Source: Escherichia phage JSE
DNA length: 64,000 nucleotides
Reading direction: 5' to 3' (one strand)
Sequence record: EU863408
The notes under the pieces are model-generated. The model saw nothing but the letters and a program-made list of their open reading frames with translations, was not told the DNA's origin and did no database searches. This document shows positions 2,995 through 51,088 of this stretch, piece after piece. The position numbers and the translations under genes are program-made. Position 1 is the stretch's first letter. Every line of letters begins with the position of its first letter.

Positions 2995-3022
2995 ATTATA
3001 GAGAATCTCCCTTGTATGTCAA
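2995..3022 (-). promoter_or_regulatory. sigma70-type early promoter
   Basis: minus strand TTGACA, 16-nt spacer, TATAAT, followed by GGGAGTCTCCC inverted repeat. Confidence 0.55.
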
Positions 3023-17039: not shown

Positions 17040-17061
17040 CCGCCATTATACACACTTTATC

Positions 17062-18538
17062 TTAAATGTCAAACAGGTCCGTCAGTGAAGCAACTTTTTC
17101 ATATTGCAGCTTCGCAGCCGTGGTAATGTTCTCCAGTGGTTTGACGAAAGTCTTATTAAACAACAAAGGCCAGTCCAACCACTTCAACACCTCTGATTCA
17201 ATTTCTGGCGGAATACGAGTACCAGACAACCAACCAAAACAGATTTCTCCAAACGGATTTCGGTCTTTAAGCGGTACAATCATAACCTTCTCGCCTTCAC
17301 GAATCGGATCTAGTCCGAATTTTCGAGCATTACGATTATAACACAATACACTCTTAACCGCATACGGACAACCCTTAATCGGATACCCGTTTGAATCGCT
17401 GTATTTCTGTAGGTTGTTTGCAGATGATACCGCAGCAACATCAAGATAGTCAAGTTTTCTAAATTCTTGCTCAAAAATACCGTAGTATTCCTGCAATGAC
17501 TCTTCACCTTCCTGCAACATACGGCGAATACATTCTTTCAGTGATTTCTGGCATGCTTTAGGGGTGGAGCTACGTTGCGTTTCCAAGCCCATGATTTTTA
17601 GCTTAGGTTCAGCAAAGCGCGTTCCTTCCATATCCCAAACATTAAGAGCATAACGCTTTTTACCAGTCCAGAATCCACCGATACCCGCAGATTTCAACGG
17701 AGGACCAGCAATTGCCTCACGGTCCATAAACATCAAGTGCTCATAGTTGTTCATGTACTCGCATAACTCGCGATATCCCTTGTCGATAATAGGTTCCATT
17801 CGATGTTTACCGAAATTATCAAGGAAGTCAACAAGTTTTTCGGTATCGTCGAAACGGTCTTCCCCGCCAACCTTATCAATAACATTGTTAACCAGCACAT
17901 AAACGGAGTCAGTATCACAATAACGAACATATGCAAAATCAGTCGTTCCGCAAAGCTCGTTTAAGTATTCGTTAATCTTACGCTCAATCCACTGAATTGC
18001 AAGCTGACCGAACAGTGTGATCGCACTAGCGTTACGGAGATCATAAAAACGGAATTTAGGATTCCCCAACGCACCATAAAGGGAGTTGATCAAAACTTTA
18101 CGAGAAAGCTGGTTTGTATTGCACAAGATCGACTCGTCTTTACATTCTTCCAGTAATTTCTCTAATGCATCTTTACTCAATTCAGAAAGCATCGATTTAA
18201 ACGCTTCATCGAAGTCGTGACGCACTTCAACGCTATAGCTAATGGTTCCCCCATAAACATGATTTTCATCGTGTAGAATCGCTTTACAGAGTTCAGCATT
18301 GCGGTCACATGCCAACATCATGTTTTTGTACTGCTTACGCTGATCGAATACCTTTTTAATCTCAATCGGTACGATACCGTGAATATCTTTTCTATACATC
18401 CATCCGTTAGGCGAGCAAGAATACTCATCACTCGGACGTGGTGCAGTTTTATTGATATACTCGTGCATCGGTGCAGCATCAAAAGATCCGGCGATTGTTT
18501 CCGGCGAAATATTAACCTGACGGATGATTGATGGATAC
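17062..18538 (-). CDS. 43: DNA polymerase gp43, exon 2 (motifs A-distal, B, C; thumb)
   Basis: track ORF 17062-18468 extended in frame upstream to 18538, adding YPSIIRQVNISPETIAGSFDAAP; contains KVLINSLYGALG and YCDTDS. Confidence 0.85.
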
Positions 18539-20236: not shown

Positions 20237-20265
20237 ATTATAGGGGAATCGACTTAGTTTGTCAA
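20237..20265 (-). promoter_or_regulatory. sigma70-type promoter upstream of gene 43
   Basis: minus strand TTGACA, 17-nt spacer, TATAAT. Confidence 0.55.
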
Positions 20266-35633: not shown

Positions 35634-35661
35634 CGATGTGAGCATTATACACGAGCTAATC
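35634..35661 (-). promoter_or_regulatory. sigma70-type early promoter
   Basis: minus strand TTGACA, 16-nt spacer, TATAAT. Confidence 0.55.
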
Positions 35662-35667
35662 CGGTTG

Positions 35668-35699
35668 TCAACACCCCAAAACGAAAAAGCCGACCCTTT
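35668..35699 (-). terminator. intrinsic terminator after nrdD
   Basis: minus RNA hairpin CGAUCC-GAAA-GGGUCG then GCUUUUUCGUUUU. Confidence 0.55.
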
Positions 35700-38906: not shown

Positions 38907-38934
38907 ATTATAGCATACTCCCTTCGCATGTCAA
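38907..38934 (-). promoter_or_regulatory. sigma70-type early promoter (PeSL-like)
   Basis: minus strand TTGACA, 16-nt spacer, TATAAT inside GGGAGUAU/AUACUCCC inverted repeat. Confidence 0.55.
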
Positions 38935-44275: not shown

Positions 44276-44304
44276 CATTATATGATAACCGCATTTTCAT
44301 GTCA
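44276..44304 (-). promoter_or_regulatory. sigma70-type early promoter (PeSL-like)
   Basis: minus strand TTGACA, 17-nt spacer, TATAAT; UGCGGU/ACCGCA inverted repeat around -10. Confidence 0.55.
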
Positions 44305-44312
44305 ACAGTTTT

Positions 44313-44981: not shown

Positions 44982-44989
44982 CAAATTTT

Positions 44990-45319
44990 TTATGATTTTA
45001 GTGAATTAACCACTACATCAAAATGATGGACAGAGCACACCTTATTAAACACATACTCATCGTGTTTAGGAATAGCGCCTAACCGCTTTATTTCGCTCGC
45101 TGACACGATAAACCGTTTATCCGGTGCATTTACCTTACATGCTTCAACAACGCACGGGAAACGCGTTTCAGAGAGTTCTGGATAGTTTTCTGAATCCATC
45201 AGGACAATGAATACCCTGTTACATTGATTGTAGAATCCTGTTTTTGATTTCATCAAGTTTTCTTCTCTGTACAATTCGTGCAATCTTCCTTTCATGATTT
45301 CGTTGGTTCTTGTCTTCAC
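44990..45319 (-). CDS. hypothetical protein
   Basis: 109-aa track ORF; true start probably internal. Confidence 0.35.
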   Translation of the reverse strand: MKTRTNEIMKGRLHELYREENLMKSKTGFYNQCNRVFIVLMDSENYPELSETRFPCVVEACKVNAPDKRFIVSASEIKRLGAIPKHDEYVFNKVCSVHHFDVVVNSLKS

Positions 45320-45560
45320 AGTTTACCCATTCAACAAGATCTTTACCCAACTCGAAAGCCCATTCTCGGTCTTGCTTTACGTTTTGTAGGTATGGACTTT
45401 CTGACACTCTACGAAGTGATGTTGTCGTAACAAGAATGATCCCAGGAATGGTCGGATGTTCCTTTCCATATACAATAGGACGCGAGTCACTATCAATACC
45501 TTGTAAGAAGGTGTATCCTGAATCACTTAGAATCATATACTTTTTCATTTCACACATCAC
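45219..45560 (-). CDS. hypothetical protein
   Basis: 113-aa ORF. Confidence 0.45.
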   Translation of the reverse strand: MMCEMKKYMILSDSGYTFLQGIDSDSRPIVYGKEHPTIPGIILVTTTSLRRVSESPYLQNVKQDREWAFELGKDLVEWVNCEDKNQRNHERKIARIVQRRKLDEIKNRILQSM

Positions 45561-45814
45561 AGTTTCCTCAACCAGTTATTAAAGCGAGCAAACCATGACG
45601 CTTTTCGTGCTTCTTTTACTTTATGTGCACGAAAACCACTGAAACACCATTCATAATCATCACCGAAACATGATTCAACAGGAACACCCGCATTTCGTAG
45701 TTCTCTGGTCTTTATCATAAATCCTTGACATAAGGGTCGACCTTCAACAATGATAGGAAGTTTAACTTTTTCCATGAAAGTATACCCAGCACGGTCAATA
45801 ATTTCAATTTTCAT
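45557..45814 (-). CDS. hypothetical protein
   Basis: 85-aa ORF, ATGA-coupled. Confidence 0.45.
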   Translation of the reverse strand: MKIEIIDRAGYTFMEKVKLPIIVEGRPLCQGFMIKTRELRNAGVPVESCFGDDYEWCFSGFRAHKVKEARKASWFARFNNWLRKL

Positions 45815-46517: not shown

Positions 46518-46737
46518 TTCTTTTATATGGTACTATAACAGGATTAATACAGCAAGCACCAATTACGTTATGAGCACCACAAGTTAAACATTTATAGTCA
46601 TGGAACTTATTAAGGAATCGACCAAACTCATAACCGACTAGCGCCGCGTGTACTTGAGTCTCGATCTCATCCATATCAGCCAATGTTTTAACCTTCATAG
46701 TATAATCCTCAAATGGTAGTTTTGCGAAGATGGTCAT
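46501..46737 (-). CDS. hypothetical Cys-containing protein
   Basis: 78-aa ORF; CLTCGAHNVIGACC. Confidence 0.45.
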   Translation of the reverse strand: MTIFAKLPFEDYTMKVKTLADMDEIETQVHAALVGYEFGRFLNKFHDYKCLTCGAHNVIGACCINPVIVPYKRNETEE

Positions 46738-46999
46738 TACATGCTTTTAATGCATCAGTCGCGGTGTCATAGCGAGTATTATCATAGCACCAGTAACCAT
46801 CTGTCAACTGATAAATCAATCCGTCCTTTTTAGCTTCGATGAAAGACAATTCTTTGAAAGTTTCTACTTTCTTTGCTGATACTCCACGGTCACGGCGTTT
46901 ATAGAGTTTAGCTAAAATGCGTTCAGCTTGTTCCTCTTTATTGCCAGACAGATCCCAGATGATGTTTCTTATATGCTTGATTAATTGTTCAGTGGTCAT
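46709..46999 (-). CDS. hypothetical protein
   Basis: 96-aa ORF; AGGAGAATCAAAG-ATG. Confidence 0.5.
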   Translation of the reverse strand: MTTEQLIKHIRNIIWDLSGNKEEQAERILAKLYKRRDRGVSAKKVETFKELSFIEAKKDGLIYQLTDGYWCYDNTRYDTATDALKACNDHLRKTTI

Positions 47000-47028
47000 C
47001 TTTGATTCTCCTTAGTTGGTATGCGTGC

Positions 47029-47056
47029 ATTATAGCATTGTGATTATCTTTGTCAA
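47029..47056 (-). promoter_or_regulatory. sigma70-type early promoter
   Basis: minus strand TTGACA, 16-nt spacer, TATAAT. Confidence 0.55.
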
Positions 47057-47061
47057 CACCC

Positions 47062-47093
47062 AAAAACAAAAAAGGCTATCCCGAAGGATAGCC
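47062..47093 (-). terminator. intrinsic terminator after the glycine-rich protein gene
   Basis: minus RNA GGGCUAUCC-UUCG-GGAUAGCC then UUUUUUGUUUUU. Confidence 0.65.
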
Positions 47094-47100
47094 CATAAAA

Positions 47101-47877
47101 TTACACGCGAGCACCGTAGATCGTGCCTACTTTATCCCAGCGTGGAGCATTACCAGTAACGGCTTTACCAGCAGCACCACCGTTATATTCTGTACCGTTC
47201 CCCTGAGTATTACATCTTCCTCCAGCAGCACCAACGTTACCGCCCGCACCGCCTGTATATGCACTAAGAGACCCCTCACCAACAGATCCTTTACCAGGAG
47301 CGGAAATAGTACCAGCAGTTGCACCGGAACTCATATGAGAGGAAGACCCACCAGCACCGAATGGGCGACCACCGCCACCACCAAATACTAGTCGACCCCT
47401 GTTACCGCCGCCACCGCCGCCACCGCCGCCAGCGATAGCACCGTTATTTGTAATTCGTAGACGTGTACCGATAGCGTTATTGATTGCGTTTCCACCAGCA
47501 GCGCCAGCAGCGTTACTACCACCATTACCCCCACGTCCGTAGACAGTCACACCGGAGTTAATGATCAATGTTACATATTCGTTTGTTAACGAGCTAGGGA
47601 AGTCAAGACAAGGAACGCCAGTAGATTGGGAAACAATATCACCAGTGATAGTAATTACTACAGGAGTAGATCCTTGTGCTTTCATCCAGTTAATAAGAGT
47701 GTCTTTATTGTAAGAGTTACTAGCACCAATGCTATAATGAATCTCTTTAGAGCGTCCGACCATTGCCGACATATACGCCGGACGACCTAAGCGTACAGCT
47801 TCCATTGCGGCACTCATCCACCGTTGACCAGTCTCGGACACAGCAGATGATCCTACCCATCCAGAAGATATTGCCAT
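47101..47877 (-). CDS. glycine-rich protein of unknown function
   Basis: 258 aa; C-terminal two-thirds dominated by Gly runs incl. nine consecutive Gly from (GGC/GGT) repeats; own terminator. Confidence 0.6.
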   Translation of the reverse strand: MAISSGWVGSSAVSETGQRWMSAAMEAVRLGRPAYMSAMVGRSKEIHYSIGASNSYNKDTLINWMKAQGSTPVVITITGDIVSQSTGVPCLDFPSSLTNEYVTLIINSGVTVYGRGGNGGSNAAGAAGGNAINNAIGTRLRITNNGAIAGGGGGGGGGNRGRLVFGGGGGRPFGAGGSSSHMSSGATAGTISAPGKGSVGEGSLSAYTGGAGGNVGAAGGRCNTQGNGTEYNGGAAGKAVTGNAPRWDKVGTIYGARV

Positions 47878-47891
47878 AAAATTTCCTCACA

Positions 47892-47913
47892 AGAAAAGCC
47901 CCATTTAAGGGGC
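47892..47913 (-). terminator. terminator-like hairpin
   Basis: minus RNA GCCCC-UUAAAU-GGGGC then UUUUCUU. Confidence 0.45.
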
Positions 47914-47931
47914 ATTGATTGATAATATTAC

Positions 47932-48153
47932 TTAGATGATCTCTGCTTCACCATCCAAGAAGAAAGACCATGTTTTGTTAGGATAGCGAAGCGCCCATGA
48001 TTCGGCAGTTTTAACACCAGTTTCGAACAATTGACGGCTGGTCACTTTAGCCATACCATCTTCGATGGCAACGTTTTCAATAATCATCGGGTACTTAGCG
48101 CCACGCATGAAACCGAAGCCAGCGGAAGATTTGATAATTTTAACAGTTGCCAT
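47932..48153 (-). CDS. hypothetical protein
   Basis: track ORF 47932-48207; start MATVKII at 48151-48153 with AGGAGAATCAAAA. Confidence 0.5.
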   Translation of the reverse strand: MATVKIIKSSAGFGFMRGAKYPMIIENVAIEDGMAKVTSRQLFETGVKTAESWALRYPNKTWSFFLDGEAEII

Positions 48154-48192: not shown

Positions 48193-48221
48193 ATTATGCA
48201 ATAACACCGGATCGCTGTCAA
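48193..48221 (-). promoter_or_regulatory. sigma70-type early promoter (PeSL-like)
   Basis: minus strand TTGACA, 17-nt spacer, CATAAT; conserved CGAAACACGACAC 5' leader. Confidence 0.55.
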
Positions 48222-50456: not shown

Positions 50457-50464
50457 TATTTATA
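50457..50464 (-). promoter_or_regulatory. candidate T4-type late promoter (TATAAATA)
   Basis: minus-strand TATAAATA about 33 nt before ATG of 50121-50423, inside a 9-bp inverted repeat. Confidence 0.35.
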
Positions 50465-50491
50465 ATCTGGGGCTTTATTTATGATTAACTC

Positions 50492-51088
50492 TTATTTGGT
50501 AGTACCGTCAATAAAATGTTTACGACACACAGAAACATATTTATCCTCTGCACCAACTTCTATTTGAGCACCATCGCGAATAACATTACCCTCTTTATCT
50601 ACACGAAGGACCATTGTTGCTTTCTTGCCACAATGACAAATACCCTTCATTTCGACCAGTTTATCAGCAAATGCCATTAATGCCGCAGATCCTTCAAATA
50701 GATTGCCCTGAAAGTCAGTGCGAAGGCCATAGCACAGTACAGGGATATTAGCATCATCAACAAGCGCACACAAGCCTAAAACATGCTCTTTAGTCATAAA
50801 TTGGGCTTCATCTACAAATACAGCATCAGGACGCCAGCGATCCGGTCTACGCTTACCTAACGATTCACGATAAACCAAATCGAAAAGATCATCCGATTTA
50901 GTGAAGGTGATCGCTGGGGCACTTAGGCCAATTCGGGAAACGACTTCACTTTCTGAATCTCGATTATCAATCGCTGGCTTAAGAATTAATACTCGCATAT
51001 CACGTTCTGTATAGTTATAAGCACTTTGTAACAGAGAAGTTGATTTGCCAGCGTTCATAGATGCATAGTAGAAATATAATTGCGCCAT
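50492..51088 (-). CDS. tk: thymidine kinase
   Basis: 198 aa; P-loop YYASMNAGKSTSLLQ; C-terminal zinc motif CHCGKKA...CRKH. Confidence 0.9.
   Translation of the reverse strand: MAQLYFYYASMNAGKSTSLLQSAYNYTERDMRVLILKPAIDNRDSESEVVSRIGLSAPAITFTKSDDLFDLVYRESLGKRRPDRWRPDAVFVDEAQFMTKEHVLGLCALVDDANIPVLCYGLRTDFQGNLFEGSAALMAFADKLVEMKGICHCGKKATMVLRVDKEGNVIRDGAQIEVGAEDKYVSVCRKHFIDGTTK

Follow-up and report, generated by a model that had tools for sequence, protein, structure and literature searches.

The 64,000-nucleotide window analyzed here, from Escherichia phage JSE (record EU863408), carries on its minus strand a glycine-rich open reading frame (ORF) that lies among small early ORFs. The locus raises two questions: what the protein is, and how its gene is transcribed and exchanged at this position. 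According to the ORF listing of the window, the frame starts with ATG and encodes 258 amino acids (aa). Glycine makes up 22.9% of the protein overall, 8.8% of aa 1 to 113, and 33.8% of aa 114 to 258. GC content is 0.54 to 0.56 across the glycine-rich part versus ~0.39 in the flanks, as expected from the GGN codons. We rejected the possibility that the ORF is spurious and the true gene lies in another frame: the overlapping ORFs span just 47 to 65 aa, whereas the 258-aa frame has full-length homologues. The first-pass annotation, which had singled out this frame from the sequence alone, was right about the gene, and every glycine-rich motif that it quoted is present, including GGGGGGGGG at aa 150 to 158. 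The gene and its parts, as assigned by the evidence below, are as follows.

47101..47877 (stop codon included), minus strand: gene 38, assigned as a 258-aa long-tail-fiber tip adhesin (receptor-recognizing protein); ORF list, Pfam, PHROG, and PDB match.
47758..47877, minus strand: N-terminal attachment domain, aa 1 to 40, predicted to dock on the gp37 trimer tip; Pfam Gp38_N, AlphaFold2 helices, and S16 alignment.
47104..47745, minus strand: GP38 domain, aa 45 to 258, β-helix plus receptor-binding domain of glycine-rich motifs and hypervariable segments; Pfam GP38, AlphaFold2, and Foldseek.
47404..47430, minus strand: nine-glycine run, aa 150 to 158, codons (GGC GGC GGT)x3; TRF, codons, S16 alignment, and family conservation.

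The protein matches the Pfam family GP38 (PF05268, "Phage tail fibre adhesin Gp38") from aa 45 to 258, over profile positions 1 to 218 of 218 (E = 1.4e-72; 244.5 bits), and the family Gp38_N (PF21721) from aa 1 to 40, over profile positions 1 to 40 of 40 (E = 6.3e-18; 64.9 bits). Both matches score above the cut-offs of their families, the curated cut-off for GP38 being 25 bits. PHROG 2056 ("tail fiber protein; host specificity") was matched over profile positions 3 to 267 of 267 (E = 1.5e-98), and phmmer aligned the protein over its full length with S16 gp38 (PDB 6F45_D; E = 6.7e-51). The protein is 100% identical to phage JSE gp38 and 96.5% identical to Phi1 gp38. The surrounding 2 kb of DNA is 96 to 97% identical to that of ELT3, KFS-EC, Phi1, and RB49 (genus Krischvirus), and annotations of the gene in relatives read 38, adhesin, or receptor-recognizing protein.

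An AlphaFold2 model built from 45 homologues, which is a prediction rather than a solved structure, has a mean pLDDT of 93.2 and a pTM of 0.84. The pLDDT is 89 to 98 across the GP38 domain (aa 45 to 258), with the highest confidence at residues 51 to 200, and the attachment domain has helices at residues 8 to 16, 21 to 27, and 36 to 39. The model contains all three parts of the gp38 fold: a helical attachment domain, a β-helix, and a polyglycine-II sandwich. In a Foldseek search of the PDB, significant fold matches were limited to the gp38 proteins of S16 (6f45_D; E = 3.4e-23; TM 0.81/0.84; 42% identity in the alignment) and PP01 (9v85; receptor-binding domain 9v85_C, E = 3.7e-21). The alternation of glycine-rich motifs (GRM) with hypervariable segments (HVS) is evident in the 45-sequence alignment, where the invariant columns are mostly glycine (G114, G116-117, G128-129, G151-153, G155, G169-170, and others) and unconserved stretches lie between them. 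A likeness to gp38 adhesins had been suspected at first pass; it was understated, since by both sequence and predicted fold the protein is a full-length gp38.

The structure of the S16 gp37-gp38 complex provides a model of how such a protein works. One gp38 monomer caps each gp37 trimer via an N-terminal three-helix attachment domain, whose three conserved tryptophans insert into pockets on the gp37 trimer; ten glycine-rich motifs extend from a β-helix as polyglycine-II helices in a three-layer sandwich, and the short hypervariable segments between them are the distal receptor-binding loops (PMC6851490). In the protein studied here, W7, W20, and Y35 sit at the positions of the three conserved S16 tryptophans. 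W7 and W20 are nearly invariant in the family, and the third docking position is an aromatic substitution, Tyr35 where S16 has tryptophan. By homology to the S16 crystal structure, the three-helix domain (aa 1 to 40) would dock onto the tip of the gp37 trimer, the remainder would form a β-helix with its glycine-rich motifs packed as polyglycine-II helices in a three-layer sandwich, and the hypervariable segments would supply the distal, receptor-contacting loops.

In the RB49 and JSE records, the gene product is labeled "distal long tail fiber assembly catalyst," which would make it a T4-type chaperone that helps gp37 to fold and is not part of the virion. That label is carried over from the T4 gene name. 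Along its whole length, the protein matches the Pfam adhesin family and the structure of the S16 adhesin, the sequence of T4 gp38 is very different (PMC6851490), and RB49 host-range mutations map to gp38 (PMC9569957). We regard the chaperone reading as highly improbable and already effectively refuted. Its sequence instead places this gp38 with the T2/T6/S16 type of adhesin. We concluded, with a probability of roughly 0.96, that the ORF represents gene 38 from a T-even phage of the RB49-like group (Krischvirus) and encodes a monomeric adhesin that caps each long tail fiber and recognizes the host receptor. No observation spoke against this identification. This identification is already known: the family is well characterized, the lineage is well known, and the literature already describes the glycine-rich architecture as well as the unusual position. 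It replaces a misleading label on a protein that, in most T-even-like coliphages, is the chief determinant of receptor choice and a target in phage therapy for predicting and engineering host range.

RB49-type gp38 proteins, which are 96 to 97% identical to the one encoded here, set host range and bind OmpA and certain O antigens (PMC9569957). The substitution E230K in RB49 gp38, with or without Y231S, extends the host range (PMC9569957), and a 2026 preprint assigned OmpA as the RB49 receptor (bioRxiv 10.64898/2026.04.02.716166). E230 and Y231 are both present in the protein encoded here. By analogy, the receptor of this exact allele is probably that of RB49-type gp38.

Within the receptor-binding domain, the nine-glycine run invited a different explanation. 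The first-pass annotation had read its codons as GGC/GGT repeats, which is correct, and had proposed that they could expand or contract in frame. Such a tract might act as a slippage-prone contingency element that varies the length of the run and with it the specificity of the adhesin. Indeed, TRF reports a perfect 9-nucleotide (nt) tandem repeat (ACCGCCGCC x3.1 at 47404-47431). We therefore counted run lengths at the aligned position in 109 full-length cluster representatives, with the following result.

Nine glycines: 59/109 representatives.
Eight glycines: 26/109 representatives.
Seven glycines: 15/109 representatives.
Ten glycines: 2/109 representatives.
Fewer than seven glycines: 7/109 representatives.

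The run thus stays at a fixed position and is 7 to 10 residues long in 102 of 109 representatives; it is exactly nine in 12 of the 13 that are at least 91% identical. A few database proteins do have shorter runs, namely, P0012 (5 residues fewer, at 96% identity) and P0027 and P0029 (3 fewer each), but each of these variants comes from a single contig and may be an assembly error. In its perfect form, the DNA repeat is peculiar to the present genome; in Phi1, GEC-3S, and kvi, nine glycines are retained, encoded by GGC, GGT, and GGG codons in other orders. In the phmmer alignment, the run coincides with an eight-glycine run of S16 gp38 (151-GGGGGGGG-158), which is helix 3 of that structure, a polyglycine-II helix inside the sandwich; it is cited as a long GRM, the central GRM 3 having a saturating hydrogen-bond network (PMC6851490). 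Glycine would be required in the counterpart of this helix, where neighboring backbones are predicted to hydrogen-bond directly. The segment right after the run is hypervariable and differs by subgroup (NRGR-LVF versus YWSPMPQMK-LTF versus SLKNSWPSN), and known changes in specificity, such as E230K, lie in loops (PMC9569957). Expansion and contraction of the tract is thus unsupported, and we consider a slippage switch very unlikely. Since the codons change synonymously while the number of glycines stays at nine, we concluded that the run is a structural element and not a slippage switch.

We then turned to the position of the gene. Proteins of the gp38 family are usually encoded directly downstream of g37, in the late tail-fiber operon. 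In Phi1, by comparison, gene 38 lies at 44,989-45,765 between ORF078 and ORF080, among small minus-strand ORFs between dam/nrdC and rI/tk, and the same flanks are found in the window. The Phi1 tail-fiber genes g34 to g37 occupy 144,965-154,585, with g37 itself (151,643-154,585) followed by ORF252 and the holin gene t. In the phage studied here, g37 lies beyond the window. The usual synteny is therefore absent; adjacency to g37 is the usual state in the family, not a defining one. Displacement of gene 38 was reportedly first described by Desplats in 2002. It is documented for RB49-like phages (Trojet 2011, PMC3157838), and gp38 lies ~55 kb from gp37 in five Krischvirus phages (bioRxiv 10.64898/2026.04.02.716166). 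The first-pass annotation had described a location outside the late structural region as unexpected; the displacement is real, but for RB49-like phages it was already published. The early character that had been ascribed to the region is borne out by the minus strand of the window, on which nine perfect TTGACA-N16-18-TATAAT promoters were counted, versus 0.05 expected. The features around the gene, in the direction of transcription, are as follows.

48193..48221, minus strand: early-type sigma70 promoter TTGACA-17-CATAAT, preceding the 73-aa ORF; 11/12 match; RB49 Pe:46502.
47932..48153, minus strand: upstream neighbor, a 73-aa ORFan of unknown function homologous to Phi1 ORF080; PHROG 7345.
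47898..47913, minus strand: terminator-like or attenuator hairpin GCCCC-UUAAAU-GGGGC followed by UUUUCUU, between the 73-aa ORF and gene 38; scan.
47885..47888, minus strand: Shine-Dalgarno sequence GAGG, 7 nt upstream of the ATG; direct reading.
47073..47094, minus strand: strong intrinsic terminator directly after the gene 38 stop codon; 9-bp stem, UUCG loop, and T-run.
47029..47056, minus strand: perfect sigma70 early promoter TTGACA-16-TATAAT with a TG extension, for the next ORF; 12/12 match; RB49 Pe:45336.
46709..46999, minus strand: downstream neighbor, a 96-aa ORFan of unknown function homologous to Phi1 ORF078; PHROG 14129.

A strong terminator and a promoter belonging to the gene itself had both been reported at first pass. 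The terminator is present at 47094-47073 (-15.3 kcal/mol; z = -4.59), and its RB49 counterpart has a TransTerm score of 100 (Nolan 2006, PMC1524935). The promoter is not: by sequence reading and scanning, no sigma70 promoter was found between the upstream hairpin and the ATG of gene 38, and the perfect promoter at 47056-47029 lies downstream of gene 38, where it serves the ORF that follows. Between the stop codon of the upstream gene (47932-47934) and the ATG there are just the Shine-Dalgarno sequence and the hairpin at 47913-47898, whose 5-bp GC stem folds marginally better than shuffled sequences (z = -1.95); the counterpart in RB49 is a predicted 5-bp terminator with a TransTerm score of 90 (Nolan 2006, PMC1524935). 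The sole promoter-like site within ~2.5 kb upstream of gene 38 is that at 48221-48193. The late promoter TATAAATA occurs as an exact motif three times in the window, the nearest on the gene 38 strand being at 50457-50464, 2.6 kb upstream, and matches with one mismatch upstream of gene 38 were unconvincing. This layout agrees with the published RB49 predictions, in which gene 38 is flanked by terminators, Pe:46502 and Pe:45336 are the early promoters, and the nearest late promoter is Pl:48756 (Nolan 2006, PMC1524935). Scans of the whole window with Rfam and for tRNAs found nothing.

Given that no late promoter is nearby, we infer that the most likely route for transcription of gene 38 is read-through from the early promoter: transcripts starting at 48221-48193 would pass the weak upstream hairpin into gene 38 and would give a modest amount of adhesin. 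Such a route is unusual for a virion protein. It is plausible because a similar arrangement, a hairpin and then a Shine-Dalgarno sequence, precedes the g37-adjacent gene 38 of phage kvi, and because one gp38 per fiber is enough. Alternatively, an unrecognized late promoter or long-range late read-through may drive the gene.

A gene surrounded by small early ORFans, with an upstream promoter solely of the sigma70 type, could also encode an early non-structural glycine-rich protein such as a host-takeover factor or a bacteriocin-like toxin, and a bacteriocin-like domain had been offered as an alternative at first pass. The Pfam scan of the protein found no bacteriocin family at E<=1, leaving that suggestion unsupported; homology to virion adhesins is overwhelming, and phages that carry gene 38 at this site do so without another gene 38 by g37. 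We give a non-structural role almost no credence. Separately, we considered the neighboring ORFs as fiber chaperones and rejected this, as all four match solely PHROGs of unknown function and are kept in phages without gene 38 at this site, the 73-aa ORF among them.

Comparison of filled and empty sites delimited a variable segment.

47023..47931, minus strand: variable segment of 909 bp comprising the hairpin, gene 38, the terminator, and the promoter; filled versus empty site comparison.

In kvi and G2248, the ORF078 homologue is directly next to the ORF080 homologue, and the 909 bp give way to 38 bp, TTG-TTGACA-CGGGGAGAAATCCCCG-TATAAT-GATAACC. On the side of the upstream ORF, filled and empty sites become homologous again exactly at its stop codon, and on the other side within the 5′ leader of the downstream ORF. 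We rejected simple deletion as the origin of the empty site, since recombining the two ends of the filled site would not yield the 38-bp segment, whose spacer (CGGGGAGAAATCCCCG) contains a hairpin. The uninterrupted short form was found in 14 of the 57 phage records that hold the locus, a set that includes GenBank/RefSeq duplicates. All 14 carry a different distal-fiber module next to g37: 11 have an adjacent adhesin gene and 3 have small ORFs, as listed here.

Kvi-type adhesin gene directly after g37: 8 records (kvi, FL20, MIZ4, MIZ5, FL15, KMB43, LF73P4, and FL04).
Adhesin gene of another allele directly after g37: 3 records (Skers, G2494, and G5211).
Three ~100-aa ORFs after g37, with no gp38-sized gene: 3 records (G2248, UPWr_E1, and G37-3).

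Among the filled-site records listed, g37 is followed directly by the ORF252 homologue, and there is no second gene 38 beside g37. The presence of gene 38 at the displaced site is perfectly complementary to the type of distal-fiber module at the g37 locus. This complementarity is a small refinement of published knowledge, as is the finding that the displaced gene has no recognizable late promoter.

In kvi, the stretch that begins in g36 and takes in the first 520 nt of g37 is just 86.7% identical to Phi1, and the rest of g37 is largely unalignable; 99% identity is regained immediately after the g38 stop codon. The stretch covering the end of g37 and g38 is 90 to 95% identical to Tequatrovirus-type phages. 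The kvi gp38 is a mosaic relative to the protein in the window, with 57% identity over aa 1 to 45, 40% over aa 46 to 113, and 82% over the glycine-rich part.

The missing late promoter and the absence of the segment from 14 related records might suggest that gene 38 survives at the displaced site only as a decaying or redundant remnant, with adhesin function residing elsewhere, for example, in the C terminus of gp37. The ORF is intact, however, and is kept in about three-quarters of Krischvirus records; its N-terminal domain is 98% conserved while the receptor-binding part varies as in an adhesin. Moreover, all 14 phages without the segment have a different distal-fiber module at the g37 locus, and RB49 host-range mutants map to gp38 (PMC9569957). 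We attach a negligible probability to the remnant explanation and take the displaced gene 38 to be the working adhesin gene.

The downstream boundary of the segment recalls PeSL elements, units of a stem-loop and a promoter at which recombination was proposed to shuffle cassettes in RB49 and Phi1 (Arbiol 2010, PMC2839356); PeSL mini-circles during infection were addressed by inverse PCR on infected cells (PMC2839356). Downstream of gene 38 the unit is complete, with the terminator at 47094-47073 and the promoter at 47056-47029. Upstream, the hairpin at 47913-47898 has no adjoining promoter, the nearest (48221-48193) being one gene further up. As in PeSL cassettes, close relatives show a replacement polymorphism with breakpoints at regulatory units. 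The PeSL paper (PMC2839356) does not mention gene 38, and by analogy we infer that the gene 38 segment may be linked to these elements. As a tentative possibility, the adhesin gene could be a self-contained, exchangeable cassette of the early region, expressed from an early sigma70 promoter by read-through past an attenuator hairpin rather than from a gp55 late promoter and gained or lost at promoter/stem-loop units together with swaps of the g37 module. If this is true, gp38 would be a virion protein under early-gene regulation and a host-range determinant mobilized by PeSL. It would also revise the published dating of the displacement, which a preprint suggests goes back to the last common ancestor of the genus (bioRxiv 10.64898/2026.04.02.716166). 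That suggestion is qualified by the other arrangement, which is found in at least a quarter of records; these may have lost the displaced gene after acquiring a g37-g38 module from elsewhere, or there may be another cause.

Compared with known systems, the segment resembles the PeSL cassettes of RB49 and Phi1 in having a stem-loop terminator and a consensus sigma70 promoter, in lying in a promoter-dense region, and in being present or absent between relatives. PeSL cassettes were, however, described for small ORFans (PMC2839356), whereas here the gene is gene 38 and the upstream hairpin has no attached promoter. With T4 gp38, the tail-fiber assembly chaperone, the present protein shares a gene number and a role related to the distal fiber, and nothing else: in T4, the receptor-binding tip lies within gp37, and the sequence of T4 gp38 is very different (PMC6851490; PMC4122927). 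The gp38 proteins of T2, T6, Ox2, PP01, and other Tequatrovirus and Mosigvirus phages belong to the same family and have the same modular GRM/HVS design (Trojet 2011, PMC3157838), and the T6 homologue (P0094) is 56% identical to the gene 38 protein. The difference from the T2/T6/Ox2/PP01 type is one of location: there, gene 38 lies directly downstream of g37, and here its setting is an early hyperplastic region that lacks a late promoter.

S16 gp38 (PDB 6F45 chain D; Dunne et al. 2018) is a full-length homologue that shares the predicted fold and has a long glycine run at the same position. It has eight glycines where the present protein has nine and a docking tryptophan where the present protein has Tyr35, and the hypervariable loops differ; S16 gene 38 is described as capping gp37, whereas the gene here is displaced from g37. 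The closest counterparts are those of the same genus. Phi1 gp38 differs from the present protein by nine substitutions, six of them in the receptor-binding part, with no functional difference known. In JSE, Phi1, and RB49 alike, homologues of ORF078 and ORF080 border gene 38 at the same displaced locus, and the flanking terminators and promoters predicted for RB49 match those found here.

We compared 57 Krischvirus records for the 909-bp hairpin-g38-terminator-promoter segment (window 47023-47931), which contains the 258-aa gp38 long-tail-fiber adhesin ORF, and found that the segment is present in some records of the genus and absent from others. A 38-bp promoter segment takes its place in 14 of the 57 records, and all 14 of these short-form records have a different distal-fiber module at the g37 locus. 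Short-form sites in two related phages are as follows:

L004 2440-2500, short-form (empty) site in phage kvi
L005 2440-2500, short-form (empty) site in phage G2248

It has been suggested previously that the displacement of g38 goes back to the genus's last common ancestor. We conclude that the polymorphism of the g38 segment qualifies this dating.

Three Krischvirus records (G2248, UPWr_E1, and G37-3) lack a gp38-sized gene at both sites. Each has three consecutive ORFs of ~100 aa between the 3,045-nt g37 and the ORF252/Dc5 homologue (in G2248, at L007 12408-13314); these ORFs may represent a different tip or chaperone system.

The gp38 protein itself varies. Relative to the window gp38 (47101-47877), the kvi gp38 (L006 7299-8078) is mosaic: identity is 57% in the attachment part and 40% in the beta-helix part, and rises to 82% in the glycine-rich receptor-binding part, where the stretch GGGGGGGGGNRGRLVFGGGGGRPFGAGGSSS is identical in both. 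This pattern would fit recombination at glycine-rich motifs. In a few database gp38 proteins, the long glycine run is contracted in frame, being shorter by 5 residues in P0012 and by 3 in each of P0027 and P0029, with a single assembly behind each protein. Each contraction reflects either genuine slippage or an error in the assembly.

At position 35 of gp38, the family consensus is Trp and the window protein has Tyr (codon at window 47773-47775), which may reflect covariation with the RB49-type gp37 tip. This Tyr replaces the third of three tryptophans with which gp38 of Salmonella phage S16 docks onto gp37.

No tRNA genes were found in window 1-64000, consistent with the published absence of tRNAs from Krischvirus genomes, and no Rfam family reached threshold over the same range.

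Nine perfect TTGACA-N16-18-TATAAT promoters are present in the window, all on the minus strand, versus 0.05 expected by chance:

232-260, minus, perfect promoter
2190-2218, minus, perfect promoter
2995-3022, minus, perfect promoter
17045-17072, minus, perfect promoter
20237-20265, minus, perfect promoter
35644-35671, minus, perfect promoter
38907-38934, minus, perfect promoter
44277-44305, minus, perfect promoter
47029-47056, minus, perfect promoter

Perfect promoters of this kind are characteristic of the early/PeSL (promoter/stem-loop) class in RB49-like phages. Late-promoter-like motifs (TATAAATA, CATAAATA, and GATAAATA) form a cluster on the minus strand (50457-50464, 50476-50483, and 50538-50545). 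This cluster lies at the 5′ end of the rI homologue or immediately upstream of it, and its position matches that of late promoter Pl:48756, which Nolan (2006) predicted for RB49. At the kvi empty site (L004 2440-2500, minus strand), consensus -35 and -10 hexamers flank a 16-nt spacer, CGGGG-AGAAAT-CCCCG, that is itself a perfect GC hairpin. The promoter/stem-loop arrangement here is compact, whereas described PeSLs have the stem-loop upstream.
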